A stretch of 64,000 nt of DNA, taken from NCBI GenBank assembly GCA_039583695.1, contig JAVKSL010000001.1, forward strand, positions 10,926 through 74,925, given 5' to 3'. The notes under the pieces were generated by a model that was not told the DNA's origin, made no database searches, and worked only from the letters and a program-made list of their open reading frames with translations. The position numbers were made by a program, and so were the translations under genes. This document shows positions 1-64,000 of this stretch, piece by piece (positions within the stretch are counted from its first letter, which is position 1; each line of letters starts with the position of its first letter). Source of the stretch: Acidimicrobiales bacterium (GTDB lineage Bacteria; Actinomycetota; Acidimicrobiia; Acidimicrobiales; JAJPHD01).

Positions 1-1815
1 TTCTGGGGATTCATCGCCCTGGCATTCACCATCGTCGAGGTCTACGGCGACCTGTTCCAGGCCAACTTCGCCATCCCGGGCATCGGAACCGCCAAGGCGC
101 TCGGTTTCACCGAGGACCTCTTTGCCACCGCCATCCTGGGTGCCATCGTCGTGTTCGCCGTGATCCGCCTCCGCCACCCCCCGAGCAACCGGCAATCGCG
201 CTTCTACGGCTCCCACAACGCCGCCGCCTGGGCGGTGCTGGGGCTCATCGCAGCGGTGATCGCCACCCTGCTCGTCTACCGCGGCGCCCAGATCGACACC
301 GGCAACTTCCCCTACGGCGACACGTGGTGGACCTTCGCCTCCCGCCTGGTCGGCGACGCCCTGTCCCCGCTCGGGCGCCCCGCCAACGCCGACATCGCGA
401 CCGCCTTCGTCCTGGCCCAGATCGGCCTCCTGTGGGGGTTCTTCGTCGTCGTGGTGCGCTCCAAGCACCTCCACATCTTCGTGGCCGAGGCAAACGTGGC
501 TCTCTCCCGCCAGCCACGAGCGCTCGGCGCGCTCGCCACCACCCCCGATCTCGGCCTCTCCGGTGACGGCCCCGGCCCGGCCGAGGACGCCGTGCTGGGC
601 GCGGGGCGCATCGGCCAGCTCTCCTGGAAGCAGCTCCTCGACCTGTGCTCCTGCACAGAGTGCGGCCGCTGCCAGGACGCCTGCCCCGCCTGGGCGACGG
701 ACAAGCCGCTCTCCCCCAAGCTGTTGATCATGGACCTGCGCGACCACCTCCTTGCCAGCGCGCCCGCTCTCCTCGGCAAGGATTGCGCCACGGCCACAGA
801 CCTGGTCCCCTCCGTCGTCGCGCCCGACGTGCTGTGGTCCTGCACCACCTGCGGCGCCTGCGTCGAGGAGTGCCCGGTCGACATCGAGCACGTGGACACC
901 ATCGTCGACATCCGCCGCTACGAGGTCATGATGGAGTCCCGCTTCCCCGCAGAAGCCACCTCCATGCTCCGCAACATGGAAAACCGCGGAGACCCCTGGG
1001 GACTGGGGAAGGCTCACCGCCTCGACTGGACCGCCGGCCTCGACTTCGAGGTCCCCGTGGTCGGCGACACCCTCGACGACGACACGGAATACCTCCTCTG
1101 GGTGGGTTGCGCAGGGGCGCTGGACCAGCGCGCCCGCGCCGCCACCAGGGCGCTCGCCCGGGTCCTGCACTACGCGGGAGTGTCCTTCGCGGTGCTCGGC
1201 CCCCGTGAGTCCTGCACCGGCGACCCGGCGCGCCGCATGGGAAACGAGTACCTGTTCCAGACCCAGGCCACCGAGAACATCGCCGCCCTGAATGGCATCG
1301 GGGCACGCAAGGTCGTGGCCTCCTGCCCCCACTGCTTCAACACCATCGCCAACGAGTACCCAGCCCTGGGCGGCCGATTCGAGGTGGTCCACCACACCAC
1401 CCTGCTCGCCAGCCTGCTCGCCGGGGGCCGCCTCACCCCCACCGTGGCGCTCGACCAGACGGTCACTTACCACGACCCCTGCTACCTGGCCCGCCACAAC
1501 GACATCGTCGCCGCCCCCCGCTCGGTGCTCGACTCGATACCAGCACTCACCAGCGTCGAGATGCACCGCCACGCCAAGCGCACCTTCTGCTGCGGGGCCG
1601 GCGGCTCACGCATGTGGATGGAGGAGCGCACCGGCACCCGCATCAACGTCCGACGCACCGACGAGGCCCTCGCCACCGGCGCGAGCGCGATCGCCGTCGC
1701 CTGCCCCTATTGCATGATCATGCTCGACGACGGTCTCAAGGACCGCCAGAGCCAGGCAAAGGTGATGGACGTCTCCCAGCTGCTCGAAGCCTCGCTCCCG
1801 CCAAAAGATTCATAG
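1..1815 (+). CDS. Membrane-anchored iron-sulfur oxidoreductase, HdrD/GlcF-like (5' end lies outside the window)
   Basis: Frame 1 is open from nt 1 (FWGFIALAFTIVEV...) into tracked ORF 151..1815. Hydrophobic N-terminal segments. Two CxxCxxCxxxCP motifs (CTECGRCQDACP, CTTCGACVEECP). Cysteine-rich CCG-type motifs (CPHCFN, CCGAGG, CPYCMIM). Confidence 0.8.
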   Translation, partial: FWGFIALAFTIVEVYGDLFQANFAIPGIGTAKALGFTEDLFATAILGAIVVFAVIRLRHPPSNRQSRFYGSHNAAAWAVLGLIAAVIATLLVYRGAQIDTGNFPYGDTWWTFASRLVGDALSPLGRPANADIATAFVLAQIGLLWGFFVVVVRSKHLHIFVAEANVALSRQPRALGALATTPDLGLSGDGPGPAEDAVLGAGRIGQLSWKQLLDLCSCTECGRCQDACPAWATDKPLSPKLLIMDLRDHLLASAPALLGKDCATATDLVPSVVAPDVLWSCTTCGACVEECPVDIEHVDTIVDIRRYEVMMESRFPAEATSMLRNMENRGDPWGLGKAHRLDWTAGLDFEVPVVGDTLDDDTEYLLWVGCAGALDQRARAATRALARVLHYAGVSFAVLGPRESCTGDPARRMGNEYLFQTQATENIAALNGIGARKVVASCPHCFNTIANEYPALGGRFEVVHHTTLLASLLAGGRLTPTVALDQTVTYHDPCYLARHNDIVAAPRSVLDSIPALTSVEMHRHAKRTFCCGAGGSRMWMEERTGTRINVRRTDEALATGASAIAVACPYCMIMLDDGLKDRQSQAKVMDVSQLLEASLPPKDS

Positions 1816-7586: not shown

Positions 7587-10397
7587 ATGGGTACCCCGGC
7601 GCTCAGCGCAGATCGGACCATGACCCCTCTCCCCCCCCACGAGGTGTTCGTAGGTAGGCAAGCAGAGTTGGAGCAGCTCTGCTGGCAGCTCGCCGCGGTC
7701 CGGATGGGTCGGTCCCGCCTGGTGGTGGTCGAGGGCGAGGCGGGCATCGGCAAGTCGGCCCTGCTCCGGCGGCTTCTCCGCGATGCTCCGGACCTGCGCG
7801 TGATCACCGCCAGCGGTGACGAGGCCGAAGCCTCCCTACCCTACGGCATGATCTCCCAGGTGCTTGGCAGCGCGGACCCGGCTTGCCTCGAGGCGTTTCC
7901 CCTGCTGAGCGACGGCCCACCCCCGACTGCCGACCCCCTGGCTGTGGGTGCAGCGCTGCTCGGCCTGCTTGGTGACATGCAGGATAGCGGACCGGTGGCC
8001 ATGCTGATCGAGGACCTGCAGTGGATCGACAAACCGTCCGCTCAGGCCCTGTTGTTCGCCTTTCGCCGCCTGATCGCCGATCGGGTGCTGGTCCTAATCT
8101 CCGCTCGGCCCCCAGTTCTTCGAGACATCGGCGAATCCTGGAACCGGCTGCTCACCACCGATCCACGCTCGCTGCGCATGCGACTGGGCGGGCTGAGCGC
8201 AGCCGAGGTGGCGGAGATGTCGAGGGCGATAGGAACCGGGCCGCTTTCGAACCGCGGCGCGCACCGTCTCGTCGAGCACACTGGTGGCAACGCCTTGTTC
8301 AGCCTGGCACTCCTGGAGGAGCTGCCGCCCGGTGCCCTCGACGGTCGATGTGAAGACCCGCTGCCTGCCCCGGAGTCCCTGGCTGCGATCATCCTACCCC
8401 GCTTGCTGGCACTTTCCGCCGACGCCCTCAAGCTGGTCAGCGCCGCCGCAATCCTCGGGGTTCGCACCACTCTCGAGGCGGCCGGGGCGGTAGCTGACGT
8501 CGCCGACCCCACGGAAGCGTTGGAGGAGGCGCTCACCGCCCGCATTCTCGCTGAGCCGGAGGGCTCTGACGATGCCATCTCGTTCACCCACCACCTGGTG
8601 CGCCAAGCCGTCCTCGACAACCTGGGCCTCGCCCAGCGCCGCAACCTACACATAGCCGCCTCAGGCGTGGTCGAGCCCAGCGCCGCCCTTGCCCACCGCG
8701 TCGCCGCGGCCAAAGGCCCGGACCCGATCCTGGCTCGTGATCTCCGGGCCGCAGCCGATGCCGCTCATCGGGTGAGAGCGCACAGCAGGGCGGGCGAGCT
8801 GTATCTCCAGGCGGCGCGGGTGAGCGAAGCCGAGGTCGCTCGGGAGGACCTCCTGCTCTCCAGCATCGAGGCCTTCCTGCGAGTGGGAGAGGTGGCGTCC
8901 GCAGAGATCGTGAGGCCCCTCGTCGAGGAGCTCGGGCCCTCGGCGCGCCGCGATGCTGCCCTGGGGCACCTGGCCCTGGTCTCGGCACGCTCCGCGGACG
9001 CCGAGGCCCTGCTGCTGTCGGCCTGGGCCACCCACGAGGAGTGCGGGCAGCCTGGGGCCGGAGCGGACGCCGCCCTCTTGCTCGGGACTCTCTACGTCCT
9101 CAGCCGCTCGGGCCAGGCGCTCACCTGGACCGAGACGGCACTGGCCACACCGAGCCTCGATGAGCAGTGGACCGCGATCGCCTGCTACACAGGGGGCATC
9201 GCCCGCGCGCTGGTCGAGACCCCCTGGGTCGCCTTGGAGACGTTCGCCCAGCTTCCCGAGGCTCCGTGGCTGGTTCCACCGTCCCAGACCGATGCGCTGA
9301 CCGGTCGGGGAATGGTGAAGCTGTGGTGCGAGGACATCGTCGGCGCCGTAGAGGACCTCTCTGTGGCGGCAACACGGGTTCGAGAAGGGAGCCAGGTCCA
9401 TTATCCAGGACAGCCGCTGGCTTTTCTGGCCGAGGCGGAGATCGCGCTGGGGCGCTGGGACGATGCGGCCCTGCACGCCGAGCTGGCCGTGTCGCTGGGC
9501 CACGACGCCGACAGGCGTTGGGACTACCCGTTCACGCACGCCATAGCGGCCAAGGTCCCGGCACTGCGGGGGGACTGGGACCAGGCGCTGGCCCACGTCC
9601 GGGCGTCGGAGGAGGCTGCCGCTCGGTTCGGGGCCAGGACAGCGCTGATATTCGCGGCAGAAGCGCGCTGTACGCTGGGCTTCGCCAGGAATGATCCAGC
9701 CGAGGTGCTCAGGGGGGCAGCCGTTGCCCTGGGGTCGGGCGGCGGGTCGGGGACCGGCGACCGGGAACCGGTGCTACTTGGTCGGGGCTGGAGGCCTCTG
9801 CACATCTGGGCGCTGATCCGCCTGGGGCGCCTCGACGAGGCCGCCTCGACGCTCGCGGACTTCTCAGCCATGGCAATGCGTCAGCAGATCCCCTCCGGAT
9901 CTCTCCGGATTGGGCGCCTGGCCGGGATGTTGGCCGATGCCCGCGGCGACTTCGAGGCTGCCAACCGCGCCTTCGCCGATGCGCGGCAGGCATCGTCGGC
10001 AGTGAACGTGCCGTTCTACCGCGCCCTGATAGACCTCGACTGGGGACGATCACTTCGCAAGAGCGGAAAGCACAAGGCGGCCCTGGACACACTCTTGGTC
10101 GCGCGAGCGGCCCTCGACGAGCTCGGCGCCCGACCGTTTGTTGCGGCCTGCGACGCCGACCTGGAGGCCATGGGGAGGCCGGCACCGGCCAGCTCGGGCC
10201 TGGTTGCTCGCCTCACCCATCAGGAAGCGGCCGTCGCTCGCCTGGTTGCCCAGGGCATGTCAAACCGGGAGGCTGCTGCGGAGCTGTACGTGAGCCCCAA
10301 GACCATCGAGTTCCACCTTGGGAACGCGTATGCCAAGCTGGGGGTCCGCGGCCGGGGCAAGCTCGCAGGGGCACTTCGGGCCGACCCGCCCACCTGA
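7587..10397 (+). CDS. Large ATP-binding LuxR-family regulator (LAL/MalT-like: AAA/P-loop + helical repeats + LuxR HTH)
   Basis: Walker A GEAGIGKSALL near the N-terminus, a long Ala/Leu-rich repeat region, and a C-terminal LTHQEAAVARLVAQGMSNREAAAELYVSPKTIEFHLGNAYAKLGV LuxR-type HTH. Confidence 0.85.
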   Translation: MGTPALSADRTMTPLPPHEVFVGRQAELEQLCWQLAAVRMGRSRLVVVEGEAGIGKSALLRRLLRDAPDLRVITASGDEAEASLPYGMISQVLGSADPACLEAFPLLSDGPPPTADPLAVGAALLGLLGDMQDSGPVAMLIEDLQWIDKPSAQALLFAFRRLIADRVLVLISARPPVLRDIGESWNRLLTTDPRSLRMRLGGLSAAEVAEMSRAIGTGPLSNRGAHRLVEHTGGNALFSLALLEELPPGALDGRCEDPLPAPESLAAIILPRLLALSADALKLVSAAAILGVRTTLEAAGAVADVADPTEALEEALTARILAEPEGSDDAISFTHHLVRQAVLDNLGLAQRRNLHIAASGVVEPSAALAHRVAAAKGPDPILARDLRAAADAAHRVRAHSRAGELYLQAARVSEAEVAREDLLLSSIEAFLRVGEVASAEIVRPLVEELGPSARRDAALGHLALVSARSADAEALLLSAWATHEECGQPGAGADAALLLGTLYVLSRSGQALTWTETALATPSLDEQWTAIACYTGGIARALVETPWVALETFAQLPEAPWLVPPSQTDALTGRGMVKLWCEDIVGAVEDLSVAATRVREGSQVHYPGQPLAFLAEAEIALGRWDDAALHAELAVSLGHDADRRWDYPFTHAIAAKVPALRGDWDQALAHVRASEEAAARFGARTALIFAAEARCTLGFARNDPAEVLRGAAVALGSGGGSGTGDREPVLLGRGWRPLHIWALIRLGRLDEAASTLADFSAMAMRQQIPSGSLRIGRLAGMLADARGDFEAANRAFADARQASSAVNVPFYRALIDLDWGRSLRKSGKHKAALDTLLVARAALDELGARPFVAACDADLEAMGRPAPASSGLVARLTHQEAAVARLVAQGMSNREAAAELYVSPKTIEFHLGNAYAKLGVRGRGKLAGALRADPPT

Positions 10398-13224: not shown

Positions 13225-14343
13225 CTAAGCGCCGAACACCTCCGACAGCAGCTCGGGCGTGACCACCTCCAGCTGGTCGTAGCTACAGCTCTCGGCATTG
13301 CGATCGGGACGCCAGCGCCGGAACGTCGTGGCGTGGCGGAAGCGCTGGCCCTGCAAGTGGTCGTAGGCCACCTCGCACACCAGCTCGGGCGCCAGCGGCT
13401 CCCACGACAGGTCCTTGCCGGCGCTCCACCGGCTCTGCCCCCCCGGGCGCCGACCGGCGGGAACGGCATGTCCAGGGGGCTCTGCCGCCGTCGGTGCGTC
13501 GGGCGCTGGTGCGCCGGCCCCGGGCATCTGGGCCCACGGGTGACCCGCCAGCTCGAGAAGCCGGTGGGGGGCCAGCTCGTCCACCAGGGCCCGCCGGCGC
13601 TGATCGGTGAACGAAGCAGTCACCCCCACGTGGTGCAGGGTGCGCCCGGCGTCGTAGAGGCCGAGCAGCAGGGACCCCACCCCGACTCCACCGCGATGCC
13701 ACCGAAATCCCCCCACCACACAGTCCGCCGTCCTCTCGTGCTTCACCTTTACCCACGACCGGACCCCCTCCAGGTAGGCAGCGCCCGCCGCCTTGGCCAC
13801 GACGCCATCCAGGCCGGCACCCTCGAAACGCTCGAACCACTCGACCGCCCGATCCCGATCGGTGGTTGCCGGGGTGAGATGAACCGGTGCAGTGACTCCA
13901 CCGAGCACCTTCTCCAAAGCTGCCCGCCTCTGAGCCAACGGCAATGGCCTCAGGTCGAGGTCGCCCAGGGCCAGCAGGTCAAACGCCACGAACGATGCCG
14001 GTGTCTGCGATGCCAGCCGGGCCACCCTCGACGCCGCCGGATGGATGCGCTGCAGCAGCGAGTCGAAGTCCAGCCCGGCCGGACCGGCGATCACGATCTC
14101 GCCGTCCAGGACGCAGCGCTCGGGCAGGGCGGATAGAAGCGCATCGACCAGCTCGGGGAAGTACCGGGTGAGCGGCCGCTCGTTGCGACTGCCCAGCTCC
14201 AGCTCCGCCCCGTCCCGGAACACCACGCTGCGGAACCCGTCCCACTTGGGCTCATAGATCCAGCTGGTTGGCGGGCCGGTTGGCAGCTCCCTAGCTGCCG
14301 TGGCCAGCATCGGCGCGACCGGGGGCGTCACGGGGAGGTCCAC
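13225..14343 (-). CDS. ligC: ATP-dependent DNA ligase, LigC-like
   Basis: VDLPVTPPVAPMLATA...YEPKWDGFRSVVFRDGAELELGSRNERPLTRYFPELV contains the KxDG adenylation motif, and GLDGVVAK is also present. Start placed at GTG 14343 (VDLPV) by analogy with mycobacterial LigC N-termini; the tracked ORF extends to 14418. Confidence 0.85.
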   Translation of the reverse strand: MDLPVTPPVAPMLATAARELPTGPPTSWIYEPKWDGFRSVVFRDGAELELGSRNERPLTRYFPELVDALLSALPERCVLDGEIVIAGPAGLDFDSLLQRIHPAASRVARLASQTPASFVAFDLLALGDLDLRPLPLAQRRAALEKVLGGVTAPVHLTPATTDRDRAVEWFERFEGAGLDGVVAKAAGAAYLEGVRSWVKVKHERTADCVVGGFRWHRGGVGVGSLLLGLYDAGRTLHHVGVTASFTDQRRRALVDELAPHRLLELAGHPWAQMPGAGAPAPDAPTAAEPPGHAVPAGRRPGGQSRWSAGKDLSWEPLAPELVCEVAYDHLQGQRFRHATTFRRWRPDRNAESCSYDQLEVVTPELLSEVFGA

Positions 14344-14457
14344 GCCCACATCCTGGCACTTCCGGAGGGCGCCTCCCGTATCAGGACCTCCACCTGGCCG
14401 CCGCCGCATAGACAACATTTTGTCGATGGAGGAGCCTCAAGCACCTAGCGTTGCGCC

Positions 14458-14991
14458 GTGAACGACACCGACATCGCCCTGGCCGGAATCGTCCTGCCAG
14501 ACGCCCGCAACGGCCAGCTGGTGGACCTTGGTGCAGGGCCGGCGCTGGGGTTGCTCATCCTCATCCGCCACCGCTACTGACTGCCCTGCCAAGAGCACCT
14601 GGTCGAGGTGCGCGCGCGAACCGAGGAGCTGGACGAGCTGGGAGCGGAGCCGATTGCGGTCGGCTTCAGCCCGGTCGAGCCCCTAGGCGCTCTGGCCGAG
14701 TACCTCAGGTGGCCCTGGCCGTTCCTCTCGGACACCGAGCGGGTCCTGTATCAGCGGCTGGGCCTGCCCCGGGCCAAGCTGCGCGACGTCTGGACACCAG
14801 GGACCAAGGGTGTCTACCGCAGGGCCAAGGCCAGGGGCGAGCCCGTCCATGCTCCCGTCGAGGACCCCCTCCAGCTGGGTGGCGACGCGATCGTCCGTGC
14901 AGGAGTGGTCACCACCCTGTGGAGACCTGCCAGTCCCGACGACCGTCCCCCCGTCGATGATGTGATGTCTGCCCTCCAGGGTCACGCTTAG
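14458..14991 (+). CDS. PRX_like2 / SelL-related thioredoxin-fold protein with an in-frame TGA at the first Cys of the CxxC motif. It is either a candidate selenoprotein (UxxC) or a nonsense-mutated pseudogene.
   Basis: The same frame as tracked ORF 14608..14991 is open from GTG 14458. It reads ...LLILIRHRY-TGA(14578-14580)-LPCQEHLVEVRARTEELDELGAEPIAVGFSP...FLSDTERVLYQRLGL...QLGGDAIV...DDRPPVDDVMSAL. Third-position G/C is 36/40 upstream of the TGA. Confidence 0.55.
14593..14613 (+). promoter_or_regulatory. SECIS-like hairpin 12-14 nt downstream of the in-frame UGA
   Basis: The stem is GCACC / GGUGC (14595-14599 / 14607-14611) with loop UGGUCGA, which contains GGUC. An additional outer G-C pair (14593/14613) is possible. 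Confidence 0.35.
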
Positions 14992-15004
14992 GCTTAGGGC
15001 TGAG

Positions 15005-15022
15005 CGTCAGGCCAGCCTGACG
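15005..15022. terminator. Hairpin between the convergent PRX-like gene and uppP
   Basis: CGTCAGG-CCAG-CCTGACG (7-bp stem, 4-nt loop). No U-tract. Confidence 0.35.
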
Positions 15023-15108
15023 GGCACCGGCGGGCGCAGGCGGGGCAGCGCGGCACTCCCCGGCACGGGCCGCCCAGCGAGCGCCGATCCTCCAGCGGCG
15101 GCACGGAC

Positions 15109-16146
15109 TTAGAGCACCGCGAACCGGATGATCGAGGCCACTCCGAACAGGATCGAGTAGGCGGCAAACGGCCGAAGCGTGCGGGTCTTGAAGTACTTGG
15201 ACAGGAAGATCACCGCCAGCAACGAGGTCACCAATGCCGCCAGGCTCCCGGCGACCACCTGGCCCCGGATCCCGTTGCCCAGCGGCCCGAGCAGGTCGGG
15301 CACCTTGAGCACCCCGGCTGCCAGGATCACCGGCGTGGATAGCAGGAAGGAGAACCGCAGGGCGTTCTCGTTGGTGAGGCCGCGATACAGGCCTCCGACC
15401 ATCGCCACTCCCTCGCGGCTGATGCCCGCCAGCAACGCCAGGGTCTGGGCCAGACCTATGAAGAAGGCGCTGACCACCCCGATGCGTGACAGCTGCCGCT
15501 CGGCTTCCCCGTCGAACGGTACGATCCGCTCGTCGCGAAAGCTCGATGCCGGCAGGACAGGGCCGTACCCCCGGACCCGTCGTTCGGCGGCGGCCTCCCG
15601 CTCGGAGACAGGCGCAGGCCCGGGCACAGGCTCGAGGGCCGGTGCCTGGGCGGCCCGCCGGCGGTAGGCCTCCCCAGCCAGCAGGATGAACCCGTTGATC
15701 GTGAGGAATATCGCTGCCGCGGCGGGCTTGGCGAACAGGACCCGAAACTCGTGCTCCAGCGCGATGCCCAGGAGCCCCACCGGGATGGTGGCGATGACGA
15801 TGAGCCAGGCCAAGCGCTCTGAGTCCGTCTCGATACGCCAGCGGACGATGCTGCGCACGAACCCGATGATCACCCGGATCCACTCCCGGATGTAGAAGCC
15901 GATGAGCACCACGGCCGTAGCCAGGTGCAGCCCCACTATGAACGCCAGGTAAGGACTGGACTTCAGGGACTCCTGGCGTACCAGCGTCGCCCAGGTTCCC
16001 CCGATCCACGACGGGATCAGCACGGTGTGGCCCAGGCTGGAGATCGGGAACAGCTCGGTGAGCCCCTGGATCAAGCCGATCACGATGGCCTGGAAGTAGT
16101 TCATGTGGTACAGCGCGGGAGCTACTGCTGGCAAGGGCACGGGCAT
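15109..16146 (-). CDS. uppP: Undecaprenyl-diphosphate phosphatase (BacA/UppP) with an internal insertion
   Basis: GLTELFPISSLGH and ...LAGISREG... UppP motifs in a polytopic membrane protein. An alternative start is MNYFQAIV at 16104. Confidence 0.85.
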   Translation of the reverse strand: MPVPLPAVAPALYHMNYFQAIVIGLIQGLTELFPISSLGHTVLIPSWIGGTWATLVRQESLKSSPYLAFIVGLHLATAVVLIGFYIREWIRVIIGFVRSIVRWRIETDSERLAWLIVIATIPVGLLGIALEHEFRVLFAKPAAAAIFLTINGFILLAGEAYRRRAAQAPALEPVPGPAPVSEREAAAERRVRGYGPVLPASSFRDERIVPFDGEAERQLSRIGVVSAFFIGLAQTLALLAGISREGVAMVGGLYRGLTNENALRFSFLLSTPVILAAGVLKVPDLLGPLGNGIRGQVVAGSLAALVTSLLAVIFLSKYFKTRTLRPFAAYSILFGVASIIRFAVL

Positions 16147-16195
16147 CTCGTCTCTTTTTTAGTAGGCCGGACCGCCGGGGTAGCTGAAAAGGTTC

Positions 16196-17827
16196 TCAGC
16201 TCGGGGGAATACTCTGGCCAAAACGAAAGACGTCGTCGGGATCGTAGGCCGCCTTCACCCGCCTCAACCTGGCGTAGTTGGCCCCGTAATACGCCTCCTG
16301 CCAGTCCACCAGGGTTGGGTCCATGTAGTTCTGATACGCCTGGAGGCTAACATACGGCTGCATTTTGGTCCAAGCGTGGGACAGCCAGGACCGGTTGGCC
16401 GCCACCACCCCGGCCGTCGCCCCGGTGTCCCATCCCACGTTGTATTCCATGAGGAACTCAGTGTCGCGGTGCACGAAGGCGGTGGCATCGGCCGGGACTG
16501 CGTTGATCGCGCCCCCGGTCGTGGAGACCACGATGCCGCCCGAGCCGGGCACCGAGAGGCCCTGCCGGTCGTCCAGGAGGCCAACCGCCGCCCTCACCCC
16601 GGCATCGGACAGCACCGAGGTCAAGAAGCTCGACTTGGTGGCGAAGGCAGACCTGCTCAGCACCCCGGCCGGGTTCTCGCTCGGCAGGTGACACCCTGCC
16701 ACGCCGTCGCCCTCACAGCCCGCCTCGATCATCATCGCCCGCATGAACGGCTCCGGGCCCACGAAGCTGTAGGTCGGAGCGGTCCCCACGGCCCGCAGCA
16801 GCGGGTCCAGGGCCCCGGAGAGCGCTGTGACGCTCCCCACCCACACACCGGTGACTTTCAAGCCGGGCGCCGACTGCCCAGGCGCCCCCATCTGGCAGTT
16901 GGCCCAGATGGCCTGCGGGGCGGCCCGCGCCCACGCCAACCACGCCCCCACCACATCGACAGCAGCCGCCCAAGGCCACTCCAGCGTGAACAGGGCCAGC
17001 TCGTCAACGGGGTGCACCAGGAAGCGAAAGGCGGTGGCGACCCCGAAGCTGCCCCCGCCTCCCCCCTGGCTGGCCCAGTACAGATCGGGGTCGGAGCCCT
17101 GGTCACAGGTGAGCAGCCGGCTGTCGGCGGTCACGATGTCGGCCGAGCTGAGCGCGTCGCAAGTCAGCCCGTGGGTGCGGTCGACAACCCCCATCCCGCC
17201 CCCGAGCGTGAGGCCGGCAATGCCCACGGTCGGGCACGAGCCGCCCGCCAGCGCCACGCCCTGGGCAGATAGGGAGGAATAGAGATCGATGAGCCGCGCA
17301 CCCGCGCCCACTTGCGCCGTCGAACCCCCCTCCCCGACCCCCACCGTGCTCATTGTGCTCACGTCGACCACCAGGCCCCGCCCGGTGGAGTACCCGGCGA
17401 AGCTGTGCCCACCCGAGCGGGTCGCAAGCTGAACGCCGTGGGCTCGGGCGAACTCGATCGAGCGCTGCACGTCAGACGCTGAGGCACAATAGGCGACCGC
17501 GGCGGGGTGAACCGAGTCGAAGATCGGGTTGAACAGCTGCGTAGCGCCTGGATAGGCGGATTGTCCAGGCAGGACGAGCCTCCCGGTGAGGGACTTGGCC
17601 AGCGCGGCCCAGCCAGGCGGGCCGGTGTCGACAGTCGTCTCGGTGACCGTAGGGACAGTCGCGGGGGTCGTCGGGCCGGTGATCTTCGGGCTTGATCCAC
17701 CAGCGGGTGGTCTCGGATGGGTCGCCCCGCACCCCGCCAGCTCGCCCATGGCCGTGCCCCCGAGCGAAAACACGGCCAGCCCGGCAGCAACCCGACCCGC
17801 CGAGCGCAGGAACTCCCGCCGGTCCAT
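16196..17827 (-). CDS. Tat-exported FAD-linked oxidase with C-terminal BBE (berberine-bridge) domain
   Basis: MDRREFLRSAGRVAAGLAV twin-arginine signal, an FAD_binding_4-type core, and C-terminal YQNYMDP...YGANYARLRRVKAAYDPDDVFRFGQSI. Confidence 0.85.
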   Translation of the reverse strand: MDRREFLRSAGRVAAGLAVFSLGGTAMGELAGCGATHPRPPAGGSSPKITGPTTPATVPTVTETTVDTGPPGWAALAKSLTGRLVLPGQSAYPGATQLFNPIFDSVHPAAVAYCASASDVQRSIEFARAHGVQLATRSGGHSFAGYSTGRGLVVDVSTMSTVGVGEGGSTAQVGAGARLIDLYSSLSAQGVALAGGSCPTVGIAGLTLGGGMGVVDRTHGLTCDALSSADIVTADSRLLTCDQGSDPDLYWASQGGGGGSFGVATAFRFLVHPVDELALFTLEWPWAAAVDVVGAWLAWARAAPQAIWANCQMGAPGQSAPGLKVTGVWVGSVTALSGALDPLLRAVGTAPTYSFVGPEPFMRAMMIEAGCEGDGVAGCHLPSENPAGVLSRSAFATKSSFLTSVLSDAGVRAAVGLLDDRQGLSVPGSGGIVVSTTGGAINAVPADATAFVHRDTEFLMEYNVGWDTGATAGVVAANRSWLSHAWTKMQPYVSLQAYQNYMDPTLVDWQEAYYGANYARLRRVKAAYDPDDVFRFGQSIPPS

Positions 17828-18001
17828 CGCGGCTTGACCGAGTCCGTCGTCGAGCACCACCGGCTCACCGTAGCGCTCCCAGCCAATGCGCAGTGGCCGG
17901 GGCCTGGGCTAAGCTCGCCAGGGCGAGCATAAAAGCGGGTGTTGCAGGGAACCAGAAGGGGGGCTCACGGGTCCAGTGAGCATGAGCATTCAGACCGGGC
18001 G

Positions 18002-36408: not shown

Positions 36409-37431
36409 ATGCGCGGAGCAGTCATGTACGCCCCCGGCGACGTCCGATTCGAGGAGCGCCCGGACCCGAAGATCATCCACCCGACCGACGCCATCATCTC
36501 CATGACCGCCACTTGTGTTTGCGGGTCGGACCTGTGGCCCTGGCGGGGCACCGACACCGTCACCGAGCCGACCCCGATGGGCCATGAGTACGTCGGCATC
36601 GTCGAAGAAGTCGGCGCCAAGGTCACCACCATCAAGCCCGGCCAGTTCGTCATCGGCTCGTTCATGGCGTCGGACAACACCTGCCCGATCTGCCAGGCCG
36701 GCTACCAGAGCCGCTGCGCCCACGTCGAGTACGTCGGCGCCGGAGGAGCGCAATCGGAGTACTTGCGGGTCCCCCTGGCCGACGGCACCCTCGTCGCCAC
36801 CACCGAGGCGCCCTCCGACGACCTGGTGCCTGACCTACTCGCCGCTTCTGACGTGCTGGGCACCGGCTGGTTCGCCGCCGTCGCCGCCGAGGTGGCGCCC
36901 GGCAAGACCGTGGCCGTCGTCGGTGACGGCGCGGTGGGCCTGCTCGCCATCCTCGCCGCCAAGCAGCTCGGTGCCGAGCGGATCATCGCCATGAGCCGCC
37001 ACGAGGCCCGCCAGGAGCTGGCCCGGGGGTTCGGGGCGACCGACATCGTGGTCGAGCGCGGCGACGAAGGCGTCGCCCGGATCAAGGAGCTCACCGGCGG
37101 GCTCGGCGCCCACAGCGTCATCGAGGCCGTCGGCACGCAAGAGTCGATGATGCAGGCGATCCGTTCCGCCCGCCCGGGTGGCCACGTCGGTTTCGTCGGC
37201 GTCGCCCACGGCGTGACGTTGCCCGGCCAAGAGCTCTTCTACGCCGAGGTCCACCTGCTCGGCGGACCCGCCCCTGTGCGGCGGTTCCTCCCACAGCTCG
37301 TCGACCTCATCGAGCAGCGCCAGATCAACCCCGGCAAAGTCTTCGACCTCGATCTGCCCCTCGACAAGGTCGCCGAGGGGTACCGGGCCATGGACGAGCG
37401 CCGGGCGATCAAGACGCTCCTACGACCTTGA
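36409..37431 (+). CDS. Zinc-dependent alcohol dehydrogenase (MDR) family oxidoreductase
   Basis: CVCGSDLW..., GHEYVGIVEEVG, structural-zinc CPICQAGYQSRC, and GDGAVGLLA Rossmann motif. Confidence 0.9.
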   Translation: MRGAVMYAPGDVRFEERPDPKIIHPTDAIISMTATCVCGSDLWPWRGTDTVTEPTPMGHEYVGIVEEVGAKVTTIKPGQFVIGSFMASDNTCPICQAGYQSRCAHVEYVGAGGAQSEYLRVPLADGTLVATTEAPSDDLVPDLLAASDVLGTGWFAAVAAEVAPGKTVAVVGDGAVGLLAILAAKQLGAERIIAMSRHEARQELARGFGATDIVVERGDEGVARIKELTGGLGAHSVIEAVGTQESMMQAIRSARPGGHVGFVGVAHGVTLPGQELFYAEVHLLGGPAPVRRFLPQLVDLIEQRQINPGKVFDLDLPLDKVAEGYRAMDERRAIKTLLRP

Positions 37432-56108: not shown

Positions 56109-56285
56109 TCCGGCCGCATCGGGCTCGATGAGGCCTATGACGCGGCTCTTGCCGACGTAGTCGGTCACGGAAGGCGCAAGACGGAACTGAGCTCACCAGC
56201 GCGCCTGTCGACCTCGAGGCCGGACGCATCGGGCTCGACGAGGCGTACGGGAGGGAGGACCAACCCAGCGCGCCTGGCAGAATTG
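56109..56285. repeat. Degenerate direct repeat in the tadG-like / oxidoreductase intergenic region
   Basis: CCGGCCGCATCGGGCTCGATGAGGCCTATGAC...CACCAGCGCGCCTGTC is repeated as CCGGACGCATCGGGCTCGACGAGGCGTACGGG...CCCAGCGCGCCTGGC. The second unit is ~40 nt shorter. Confidence 0.6.
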
Positions 56286-56290
56286 CCGCC

Positions 56291-57682
56291 ATGAAGCGAT
56301 TCGAGGTGATTGTGCTTGGTGGCGGCTCAGCCGGAGAGTACGTGGCAACGGGGCTGGCCAGGGCCGGCCGGGGCGTAGCGCTGGTGGAGGCCTCCCGGGT
56401 GGGAGGCGAGTGTCCCTATGTGGCCTGCATGCCCAGCAAGGCGCTCCTGGCGTCTGCGGCCGCCCGGCATCGCGCACTGCGGGCCCACACACTCGGCGGC
56501 ACGGCGGGGCCGCTGAGCCTGGACGATCCGGCGGCGGCTTGGGCCGCGGCCGTTGCTCACCGCGACCTGGTTGCCGCGTTTCGCGACGACAGTGCCTCGG
56601 CTCGCTCCGTGGTCGAGGCGGGTGTGACCCTGGTCCGGGGCTTTGGCAGCATCGCCGGCCCCGGCCACCTGGAGATCTATGGGGAGGACCACGTGTGGGA
56701 CGACCTGGTGATCGCCACGGGGAGCGCGGCGATGATCCCACCGATCGAAGGCTTGGCCGACGTGGGCTTCTGGACGAGCGACCAGGCCCTGTCAGCCGAC
56801 ATGCTGCCCGACTCGCTCGGCGTGATCGGTGGGGGTCCCGTCGGATGCGAGCTGGCCCAGGTGTACGCCCGATTTGGCGTGTCGGTGACCTTGATCGAGC
56901 TCGCCGACCGGCTCGTAGCGGCCGAGGAGCCTGCGGTGTCGGAGCTGATGGCTGACGCCCTTGGTTCCGACGGTGTGACCCTCGAGCTTGGATGTCGAGT
57001 CCGGACTGCCGTCTCCACGCCCGAGGGAATTGCCCTCACCCTTGAAGGTGCGCGTCACGGCCAGGTCGTGGTCAGCCAGCTTCTGGTAGTAGCCGGACGT
57101 AGGCCGGCTGTCGAGGACCTGGGTCTGGAGACCCTCGGCATCGAGGCGGGCACGAAGGGCCTCCAAGTGGACAGCCACTGTCGGGTAGTCGGGCAGGATC
57201 ACGTGTGGGCTGCTGGTGATGTAACTGGGGTTGCGCCGTTCACGCATACGGCCAACTACCAGGCCCGGGTGTGCATCACCAACTTGTCAGGCGGCGATGC
57301 CAGCGCCGATTATCGGGCGATCCCCCGCTGCGTGTACACCGACCCCGCCCTTGCATCTGTCGGTCTGACAGTCTCAGGCGCAGTGGCGTCCGGGGTTGAC
57401 ATAGCTGTGACCAGCGCGCACGTCGAGCAGACGGCCAGGGCATCCAGCGATGGACCGCCCGGGGGCCTGTTGATGCTGGTGGCGGACCGCGATCGACAGG
57501 TGCTGGTGGGGGCCTCCGCGATCGGCCCCCACGCGGATGAGTGGATCGGCGAGGCTGTCCTTGCCATCCGCGCCGAGATACCGTTGGCCGTCCTGGCCGA
57601 GGTGGTCCACCCGTTTCCCACCTTCAGCGAGGTCTATGAGCCTGCGCTGCGCGAACTGGCACGAAGCGCCGGCAAGGTATGA
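56291..57682 (+). CDS. FAD-dependent pyridine nucleotide-disulfide oxidoreductase (class I, Lpd/mercuric/mycothione-reductase-like)
   Basis: VIVLGGGSAGEY, GGECPYVACMPSK (CxxxxC redox pair), a second Rossmann motif GVIGGGPVGCELA, and C-terminal HPFPTFSE. Confidence 0.88.
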   Translation: MKRFEVIVLGGGSAGEYVATGLARAGRGVALVEASRVGGECPYVACMPSKALLASAAARHRALRAHTLGGTAGPLSLDDPAAAWAAAVAHRDLVAAFRDDSASARSVVEAGVTLVRGFGSIAGPGHLEIYGEDHVWDDLVIATGSAAMIPPIEGLADVGFWTSDQALSADMLPDSLGVIGGGPVGCELAQVYARFGVSVTLIELADRLVAAEEPAVSELMADALGSDGVTLELGCRVRTAVSTPEGIALTLEGARHGQVVVSQLLVVAGRRPAVEDLGLETLGIEAGTKGLQVDSHCRVVGQDHVWAAGDVTGVAPFTHTANYQARVCITNLSGGDASADYRAIPRCVYTDPALASVGLTVSGAVASGVDIAVTSAHVEQTARASSDGPPGGLLMLVADRDRQVLVGASAIGPHADEWIGEAVLAIRAEIPLAVLAEVVHPFPTFSEVYEPALRELARSAGKV

Positions 57683-62902: not shown

Positions 62903-63160
62903 GCCGAGCGCGGCAACCCGGCGCATGAGGGCCGACTTGCGGTTGGAGGCCTGGTTGGCGTGGATGATCCCCTTCGCTGCGGCCATGTCCAAGCGCTTGC
63001 AGGCCATTCGCAAGGCCTCGGCGGACTCCGGCGCACCCGCCTCGGCTGTGGCGACAGCGGTCTTGATCCGCGTCTTTACCTCGGAACGCACACCCTTGTT
63101 CCGCACCCGTAGGCGTTCGTTCTGGCGGTTGCGCTTGATCTGGCTCTTGATGTTTGCCAC
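62888..63160 (-). CDS. rpsT: 30S ribosomal protein S20
   Basis: [33 protein letters not shown]... Confidence 0.95.
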
Positions 63161-63261
63161 GGCGCATCACCCTAGCACCCGACGCACCCGACGCACCCCG
63201 CGGGCGCACCCGATATGAGTGGGCACGGGTGCGGCCGGACGCGGGGGCATATTCCGTAAAG

Positions 63262-64000
63262 ATGGCTGGCACAGTGACCCTGCGCTCCCAAACACCGCCC
63301 GCCCTGATACGCAACCTGTCGGTCATCGCTCACATCGACCACGGCAAGTCGACCCTGTCGGACCGAATCCTGGAGCTCACCGGGGCCGTCGACCCCCGGG
63401 AGATGCGGGAGCAGTACCTCGACACCATGGACATCGAGCGGGAGCGGGGCATCACCATCAAGGCGCAGAACGTGAGGGTCGGATGGCGCGGCCACGTCCT
63501 GCACCTGATCGACACGCCGGGCCACGTGGACTTCGCGTACGAGGTGAGCAGGTCGCTGGTCGCGTGTGAGGGGGCAGTCCTGCTGGTCGACGCCTCCCAG
63601 GGGATCGAGGCCCAGACCCTCGCCACCTGCTACCAGGCCCTGGAGCACGACCTGGAGATCGTCGCGGTGCTCAACAAGATCGACTTGGCCGCCGCCGAGC
63701 CTGACCGCTGCGCGGAGGAGATCGAGCGGGTCCTGGGGATCGACGCGGCCGGCATCCTGCGGATCTCGGCCAAGACCGGCGAGGGTGTCCCCGCCCTGCT
63801 GGACGCGGTGGTCGAGCGCATCCCCCCGCCGAGCGGCGACCCCGACGCGCCGCTGCGGGCGCTCATATTCGACTCCTACTACGACCGCTACCGGGGCGTG
63901 GTGAGCGCGGTGCGGGTGGTGGACGGGCGACTCGCCCCCCCCCAGCGCGTGCGCTTCATGCAGACCGGGGTGGTGCACGAGGCCGAGGAGGTGGGGGTGC
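63262..64000 (+). CDS. lepA: Elongation factor 4 (LepA), 3' end outside the window
   Basis: Absent from the ORF track because there is no stop in the window. ATG 63262 reads [41 protein letters not shown]...DTPGHVDF...LNKIDL GTPase motifs. Confidence 0.92.

Follow-up and report, generated by a model that had tools for sequence, protein, structure and literature searches.

A candidate selenoprotein gene of the PRX_like2 type in an Acidimicrobiales genome and the truncated records of its relatives

Reading frame and gene structure

We analyzed a window of 64,000 nucleotides (64 kb; the whole stretch of DNA considered here) from an Acidimicrobiales bacterium (GenBank assembly GCA_039583695.1, contig JAVKSL010000001.1) and focused on window positions 14458-14991, where an earlier inspection of the letters and open reading frames (ORFs) alone, hereafter the sequence-only reading, had proposed a selenoprotein gene. 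Translation gives an in-frame ORF that runs from GTG 14458 through a TGA at 14578-80 to TAG 14989-91, with a joined product of 177 amino acids (aa). Upstream of the TGA it reads VNDTDIALAGIVLPDARNGQLVDLGAGPALGLLILIRHRY (40 codons, ending in ...LLILIRHRY), and downstream it continues as LPCQEHLVEV... Comparative sequence analysis makes it very likely that this stretch is one gene for a 177-residue oxidoreductase in which UGA 14578-80 is decoded as selenocysteine (Sec, U), giving the redox motif U-L-P-C.

The only ATG, GTG or TTG candidate between the upstream stop at TAG 14446 and the conserved N-terminal block is GTG 14458, where translation presumably starts. Translation bears out the earlier description of a frame open from TAG 14446 that passes from GTG 14458 through the TGA into the tracked ORF; a recount of third-position G/C in the 40 codons before the TGA gives 35/40 instead of the 36/40 first stated. 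Also as described, the ORF list holds only a 127-aa ORF from GTG 14608. This called ORF (14608..14991) lacks the redox motif, and its start GTG is the conserved valine codon of the hairpin stem described below. When all six frames of the 64-kb window were searched for in-frame TGAs with coding-type composition over at least 35 codons on both sides, only this one and another at 37429 were found; the latter is the stop of one gene, with the next gene following 10 bases on in the same frame.

The gene starts 39 bp (14419-14457) from a divergently oriented DNA ligase gene (ATG 14418 on the minus strand; GTG 14458 on the plus strand). The closest Shine-Dalgarno-like sequence, GGAGGAG at 14429-35, lies 22 nucleotides (nt) 5' of GTG 14458, which is too distant, and TAGCGT at 14446-51 is compatible with the TANNNT -10 box of a leaderless transcript. 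A consensus scan of 14200-15200 for promoters and terminators found none.

Conservation of the TGA codon and of the downstream hairpin

In 70 distinct relatives, some of them with only about 31% identity, the TGA falls in one and the same alignment column. RHRY-TGA-LPCQ(E/Q)HL is read in a single frame in each of four Actinomycetota and Euzebyales metagenome-assembled genomes (MAGs; L001-L004, 60-66% identity), and RHR[YHF]-TGA-LPCQ(E/Q)HL recurs in nearly all of 80 metagenome loci (about 75), whose identity goes as low as about 31%. Altogether, this DNA comprised 70 distinct Sec-form sequences and two forms with cysteine (Cys) instead (L033 and L083); TGC or TGT stands at the Sec codon in these two and in L086 and L087. 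The column compared with the family alignment is thus one of Cys or Sec, and orthologs carry either TGA (the 70 Sec forms) or TGC/TGT (four loci), which agrees with the sequence-only reading. We therefore find coding conservation around an in-frame UGA, a Sec/Cys pair, and UGA in at least two sequences; the Sec/Cys-pair criteria are the field's definition of bacterial selenoprotein families (PMC1088965).

The closest relative, the Acidimicrobiales MAG GCA_050744085.1 (L088), is 78% identical over the C-terminal part of the protein and keeps both the TGA and the hairpin. It also has the gene order of the window: ATP-dependent DNA ligase (-), the gene (+), lipid phosphatase (-), and FAD/BBE oxidase (-). 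Differences between the two at the first, second, and third codon positions number 5/3/15 before the TGA and 17/11/51 after it. The same dominance of third-position substitutions on either side of the TGA, in one frame, is seen against L001, L004, and L006, and both parts are therefore likely to be translated in one frame. The block of shared synteny spans window 13225-17860 and L088 8555-12655. Its phosphatase slot is occupied by BacA/UppP in the window and by a PAP2-family enzyme in L088; these are unrelated families, each of which includes undecaprenyl-pyrophosphate phosphatases. None of L001-L085 shares the neighbor genes of the window, which are shared only by L088 and L089.

The neighboring genes (those for DnaJ, a LuxR-type ATPase, ClpB, the ATP-dependent DNA ligase, BacA, the FAD/BBE oxidase, and others) have full-length domain matches, and UGA serves as a normal stop: TGA terminates 7 of 10 neighbors with full-length Pfam matches, among them the genes for DnaJ, the LuxR-type ATPase, ClpB, and the BBE oxidase. 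A genome-wide reassignment of UGA was considered and is excluded, as TGA ends neighbors whose Pfam matches reach the C-terminus. In addition, we looked at the base 3' of the Sec UGA (window 14581), which is C in 62 of the 70 sequences, A in seven, and G in one, partly owing to the Leu codon CUN. UGA-C is a weak (leaky) termination context. In two further copies, on the JGI contigs Ga0169967_1000010 (L090, 10001-10600) and Ga0170682_1002111 (L091, 3305-3900), CGA (Arg) replaces the Sec TGA, giving RHRY-R-LPCQEHL (protein P0041); about 95 codons further on there is a frameshift, after which the conserved C-terminus resumes in another frame. This copy, found in two samples, looks like a decaying one.

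A hairpin lies at 14595-14611, with a stem of 6 bp between 14595-14600 and 14606-14611 (GCACCU/AGGUGC) and the loop GGUCG (14601-05). It begins 14 nt after the UGA and spans the region 14-31 nt downstream. The sequence-only reading had written it as GCACC-UGGUCGA-GGUGC, 12-14 nt past the TGA and with a GGUC loop; the hairpin is indeed there at a distance of 14 nt, and one extra U:A pair lengthens the stem to 6 bp. Located just 3' of the UGA and capped by a small apical loop that contains G, this stem-loop has the form expected of a bacterial selenocysteine insertion sequence (SECIS). Counting the U of the UGA as +1, the six pairs join +18..+23 with +29..+34, and we compared them across 68 distinct Sec-form sequences. 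The pairs were formed in 88.7% of cells, compared with 78% after shuffling columns and 23-53% when the partners were slid. At +22:+30, 46 sequences have C:G and 18 have G:C, a switch coupled to a change from Leu/Glu to Ala/Ala, while C:G appears at +18:+34 in four sequences and U:A at +21:+31 in one.

Synonymous sites within the stem are constrained as well. GTG is used for the stem Val (+31..33) by 67 of the 68 sequences, whereas it makes up 38% of the Val codons elsewhere in these genes (binomial p = 3e-27), and the loop Val two codons before it is GTC in 40, GTG in nine, and GTT in four (Fisher p = 8e-23), with both p-values overstating independence because the aligned sequences share kinship. 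Of the 22 sequences with G at +22, 21 use GCC for the partner Ala. The 5-bp core was observed in 69% of sequences, whereas keeping the amino acids fixed and redrawing synonymous codons gave 16 +/- 4% (500 draws, maximum 29%). For the close clade, RNAalifold gives this 6-bp hairpin and its 5-nt loop as the consensus; over 75 nt, RNAalifold returned no conserved lower helix except a weak one of 3 bp. The downstream hairpin is thus conserved in relatives, with both compensatory changes and synonymous-site constraint.

In the SECIS element of Escherichia coli fdhF, a short hairpin within the ORF, the upper stem-loop starts 11 nt after the UGA and carries a GGUC apical loop that starts 18 nt after the UGA; this position and the GGUC-type loop are what SelB recognizes. 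The stem of the window hairpin starts 14 nt after the UGA, and its loop, GGUCG, begins 20 nt after it. Compared with fdhF by sequence alone, the window element differs in having no bulged U, no conserved lower helix that includes the UGA, and another stem sequence.

Protein family, database records, and neighboring flavoproteins

Family searches of the joined product were run with U written as C. They returned Pfam PF13911 AhpC-TSA_2 (PRX_like2) at 39.6 bits, above its cut-off of 27, and PF00578 AhpC-TSA at 29.4 bits against a cut-off of 26. The single NCBIfam match was NF040769, 'SelL-related redox protein', which aligned over model positions 12-172 of 173. The product is therefore of the PRX_like2 type, as first suggested, with the SelL-related model as its best NCBIfam match at a score below the cut-off. 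Specifically, the curated cut-off of NF040769 (120 bits) is reached neither by the window protein (92.3 bits) nor by its clade (88-98 bits), and it is passed by remoter TGA-bearing relatives (135-176 bits) and by one Cys form (130 bits). What the window protein shares with NF040769 is length, fold, motif position, and near-complete model coverage; lying below the cut-off, its clade is not named as members under NCBI's own rule. As the model does not reach the clade, it offers no automatic rescue of the annotation.

Sequence similarity to solved structures is marginal (best match BcpB, 5epf, E = 0.03). In the alignment to this peroxiredoxin (Prx), U41 falls on the Prx Thr column and C44 on the peroxidatic-Cys column, and the motif is therefore thioredoxin-like, (C/U)xxC, and not the Prx TxxC. 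A typical peroxiredoxin (PF00578, Prx/BCP), marked by (P)xxxTxxC, was accordingly rejected as a description of the protein, the motif of which is UxxC. As a stand-in for the window protein, we used the Cys orthologue P0002, which is 64% identical and whose AlphaFold model has a predicted local distance difference test (pLDDT) score of 93. The model shows a thioredoxin fold in which helix 1 has C43-I-P-C46 at its N-terminus, with C43 directly preceding helix 44-55. Its top Protein Data Bank (PDB) match is human prostamide/prostaglandin F synthase, PRXL2B (9usa; E = 3.4e-8, template-modelling (TM) scores 0.63/0.74, 23% identity), followed by BCP/PrxQ/AhpE peroxiredoxins. PRXL2B (9usa, 9us9) is a CxxC member of PRX_like2 / AhpC-TSA_2 with C44/C47 placed as in the P0002 model. 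It is an animal Cys enzyme that reduces a lipid endoperoxide, and the modelled likeness to the bacterial protein is one of fold only. By alignment, the TGA codon is at the first-Cys position of CxxC, which is predicted to be the N-terminus of helix 1; Cys homologues with RHRNCIPC, RHRHCLPC, and HLACLPC align there, in line with the earlier placement of the TGA where the first redox Cys belongs.

A protein-database search returned 68 homologous clusters (90% identity), of which 65 are 119-151 aa long and start just past the TGA column. The other three are P0002 and P0003, which are full length with RHRNCIPCHEHL, and P0041, with Arg at the Sec position. When 1.84 billion representatives were searched with HMMER, 408 family members came up at E <= 0.001; among the best 150 of these 408 (50%-identity representatives), 103 begin after the motif and 47 are full length. 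We read 12 full-length representatives: nine show CxxC there, with motifs such as RHRHCLPC, RHLACLPC, and RHLACIAC, one keeps only the first Cys (CxxD), and two are without Cys. Full-length representatives with Cys in the Sec column include P0093, P0098, P0103, P0117, P0125, P0134, and P0140. In the full-length members P0100 (RHDGCVQD) and P0109 (RHSCRSGIQ) the redox motif is lost, and these are probably non-catalytic or differently functioning derivatives. Two other proteins, P0191 (476 aa) and P0102 (418 aa), start just past the Sec column (MPCQQHL...) and have long C-terminal extensions, that of P0191 resembling a multi-pass membrane domain; they may be fusion forms of the selenoprotein. 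P0157 and P0233, also among the representative matches, were rejected as family members, being long TPR-type low-complexity repeat proteins.

The prediction that automated annotation would truncate the gene is borne out by the 65 truncated clusters and by the closest relative, L088, where the gene is split in two. There, the first 47 codons up to the TGA are called as a 47-aa gene of their own (9830-9973 of JBOGGU010000029.1), and the remainder is annotated as a 142-aa 'peroxiredoxin-like family protein'. The closest annotated relatives carry only this name or 'AhpC/TSA family protein' and are truncated. The gene and nearly all of its relatives are thus stored as fragments of 120-150 residues without the active site, or as two genes, and functional or comparative analyses of these fragments would therefore be wrong.

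We found no paper that uses the name 'SelL-related'. Eukaryotic SelL has a UxxU motif, in which two Sec residues form a diselenide, and its SECIS element lies in the 3' untranslated region. The window gene, in contrast, has a single in-frame TGA and one predicted Sec (UxxC, not UxxU), and its hairpin is of the bacterial type and lies within the ORF. What the two have in common is a Prx-like thioredoxin fold with Sec in an xCxxC-type redox motif (PMC2398784), and the name of the NCBIfam model also connects them. UxxC 'Prx-like' selenoproteins with a SECIS element within the ORF have been catalogued since 2004-2008 and appear in current reviews (PMC1088965, PMC2398784, PMC9312934, PMC13188914). 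Compared by description only, the 'Prx-like' UxxC families of Gladyshev and Zhang (Prx-like thiol:disulfide oxidoreductase, Prx-like 1-3, and the cd02970 peroxiredoxin-like family protein) are listed under PF00578, PF08534, or cd02970 with UxxS. They come mostly from marine or anaerobic Proteobacteria, whereas the clade of the window comprises Actinomycetota and Acidimicrobiales MAGs. This clade is probably a new member or sub-clade of an already known type, as UxxC Prx-like selenoproteins with an in-ORF SECIS element have been known for about 20 years.

The clade, which probably belongs to the Acidimicrobiia/Actinomycetota, is recognizable by the blocks RHR[YHF]-U-LPCQ(E/Q)HLV.V, VGFSP, WPWPFLSD, PVED..QLGGDA (also PVED.xQLGGDA), and SPDDRP. 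Of the 47 loci with sufficient flanking DNA, eight encode a class-I FAD/NAD(P)H disulfide reductase (CxxxxC) within 2.5 kb of the gene. A clustering of neighbor genes consisted mainly of spurious antisense ORFs, which arise in G+C-rich DNA. The flavoprotein is in the MerA/Lpd/GR superfamily, and its best NCBIfam matches ('FAD-containing oxidoreductase', MerA, and Lpd) are all below cut-off. Its distance from the Sec or Cys codon does not exceed about 600 nt in any of the eight loci. The flavoprotein gene of L024 runs on the same strand as the selenoprotein gene and overlaps its 3' end, those of L016 and L019 are divergent, and the Cys-form locus L033 is among the eight (Table 1). In the window, the nearest homologue of this flavoprotein is 42 kb off, at 56261-57661. 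It is possible that the adjacent flavoprotein is a dedicated reductase partner. Going further, one could suppose that the RHR[YHF]-U-LPCQEHL clade is an undescribed Actinomycetota selenoprotein subfamily that acts as the selenol half of a two-component reductase with the adjacent flavoprotein, a proposal that we put forward tentatively and consider doubtful as a whole. If true, these soil and desert actinobacteria, which are largely aerobic and in which selenoproteins are considered rare, would have a private system resembling thioredoxin.

Table 1. Coordinates of the candidate selenoprotein gene, its elements, and the flavoprotein genes of related loci (window positions unless a locus is named)
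Feature	Position	Strand	Details
Candidate selenoprotein gene, PRX_like2 / AhpC-TSA_2 thioredoxin-fold protein	14458..14991	+	GTG, 40 codons, UGA (predicted Sec), 136 codons, TAG
Upstream in-frame stop TAG, bounds the N-terminus	14446..14448	+	Translation
In-frame TGA, read as Sec; residue 1 of the U-L-P-C redox motif	14578..14580	+	Sec/Cys column
TGC, second (resolving) Cys of UxxC	14587..14589	+	TGC/TGT in 70/70 Sec-form sequences
SECIS-like hairpin within the coding sequence	14595..14611	+	Fold, pairing, covariation, synonymous constraint
127-aa ORF as called by gene finders	14608..14991	+	GTG start; identical to database protein P0001
Flavoprotein	L024 10485-11912	+	
Flavoprotein	L016 ~8560-9920	-	
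Flavoprotein	L019 321-1100	-	
Flavoprotein	L078 898-2270	+	
Flavoprotein	L052 10-975	+	
Flavoprotein	L020 3366-4703	-	
Flavoprotein	L021 7582-8859	+	
Flavoprotein	L021 10688-11932	-	
Flavoprotein	L033 15-509	+	

Decoding of the UGA, alternative explanations, and implications

For Sec insertion, substrate, and reductant, we infer the following scheme. By analogy with E. coli fdhF, SelB with Sec-tRNA(Sec) would sit on the hairpin at 14595-14611 while the ribosome is at the UGA. In the finished protein, the U41 selenolate at the start of helix 1 would attack an oxidized substrate, which might be a peroxide or endoperoxide or else a disulfide. Cys44 would resolve the intermediate into a selenenylsulfide, and a cellular disulfide reductase system would restore the reduced enzyme.

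The decoding machinery itself was searched for in the window and in the fetched loci. ARAGORN found no tRNA genes of any type in the 64-kb window and no tRNA-Sec in any fetched locus. Its one unusual call, a 91-nt 'tRNA-???' at L012 6128-6218, 3.9 kb 5' of the selenoprotein gene, was rejected as most likely a false positive, with no Rfam support. Likewise, selA, selB, and selD were not detected by tblastn with the E. coli proteins in the window and 85 loci (about 1 Mb of related DNA), a negative that is weak because of the queries used. The sole match, of the SelB GTPase domain to window 63316-63816, is LepA; the 5' part of lepA (elongation factor 4) occupies window 63154-63999 (+) and runs off the window end. 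According to published surveys, all 84 of 84 complete Actinomarinales (Acidimicrobiia) genomes carry selA, selB, selC, and selD (bioRxiv 10.64898/2026.04.03.716425), and Sec use is recorded in several actinobacterial lineages (PMC5029168). The statement in the sequence-only reading that selenoproteins are uncommon in actinobacteria was, on both of these counts, overstated.

It is important to point out that several of our observations weigh against a Sec-decoded gene with a functional SECIS element: these are the missing tRNA-Sec and sel genes just described, the kinship behind the p-values, and a number of properties of the hairpin. The hairpin is short (5-6 bp), and its single-sequence fold (-12.8 kcal/mol, z = 0.44 against shuffles) is unremarkable in DNA of 68% G+C, so that its significance must come from its conservation. 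Rfam, in which bacterial SECIS elements are sparsely represented, gave no SECIS family either in the whole window at the gathering threshold or in 14540-14680 at E <= 10, where only chance matches appeared. Conserved His and Val residues account in part for the CAC/GUG core of the stem. Moreover, the hairpin is not exclusive to Sec forms, as it is still present in three of the four Cys-form genes (L086, L087, and L083) and lost in L033; four such genes are too few to tie the hairpin constraint to Sec forms. These properties would fit a true selenoprotein in which the hairpin at 14595-14611 is a by-product of the His (CAC) and Val (GUG) codons and the real SelB element is a different or more extended one. 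We regard this as unlikely, since the stem is far more frequent than expected with the amino acids fixed (69% versus 16%), the stem Val is nearly invariably GTG while the loop Val follows ordinary usage, pairs 22:30 and 18:34 show compensatory changes, and RNAalifold offers no competing conserved helix beyond the weak 3-bp one. The absence of sel genes and tRNA-Sec from the 64-kb window, together with the patchy and often lost use of Sec in bacteria (PMC1794560, PMC5029168), would also suit a relic, that is, a true selenoprotein family whose Sec decoding has been lost in this genome, leaving the gene silent or yielding only a 40-residue N-terminal peptide. We judge this distinctly improbable: the window shows no damage to the ORF, the UxxC motif, or the hairpin, the 78% protein-level conservation with the syntenic relative has the pattern of purifying selection, and the loss of Sec decoding normally leads to a Sec-to-Cys change or to decay, as in L090.

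The remaining alternatives set aside Sec in the protein altogether. UGA might instead be recoded as another residue, either Cys by a tRNA(Cys)UCA with a SelB paralogue or Trp or Cys by near-cognate read-through. The C that follows the UGA in most of the sequences is a leaky context and would favor the latter, but Trp would destroy the active site, and Sec is the residue normally indicated where a redox motif has a Sec/Cys column and is accompanied by a SECIS-type hairpin. The former has a precedent in the selC* tRNA(Cys)UCA that operates with SelB* in some anaerobic bacteria; however, selC* is reported in Firmicutes, Thermodesulfobacteria, Nitrospirae, and Proteobacteria, not in Actinobacteria, and it is always found beside the full Sec machinery (PMC5389517). 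Recoding of this kind therefore seems very improbable to us. Even less can be said for a pseudogene created by a recent TGC-to-TGA nonsense mutation in an ordinary CxxC gene, which we find hardly credible. The family does have Cys forms, and one relative, the L090/L091 copy with its CGA codon and downstream frameshift, is truly decaying. However, TGA in the same column of 70 relatives, including the syntenic closest one and others of only about 31% identity, means that there was no one-off nonsense mutation, and the lone TGC-to-TGA change named as a competitor in the sequence-only reading is excluded on this ground. In addition, substitutions before and after the TGA fall mainly at the third positions of an intact frame, and, contrary to the earlier remark that several nearby genes are decaying, the neighbors are full length by Pfam and show no decay. 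Finally, the annotation might be correct as it stands, with a functional product of 127 aa from GTG 14608 and the upstream 40 codons forming a separate ORF or a leader. Gene finders make this choice in nearly every relative, but we give it next to no credence, because such a product would be without strand 1, the redox motif, and half of helix 1, the internal starts called vary among relatives (that of the window being the conserved stem Val codon), and the N-terminal block shows conservation in the same frame as the part that follows it.

Overall, our findings support the reading of 14458-14991 as a single gene with a UGA that would be decoded as Sec. The mechanism is not new; the contribution lies in the correction of an annotation and in a sizeable clade that has been mis-annotated. 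The gene would add a Sec-dependent thiol/selenol oxidoreductase to the Acidimicrobiia-like Actinomycetota and would imply that the Sec machinery is retained in these organisms.

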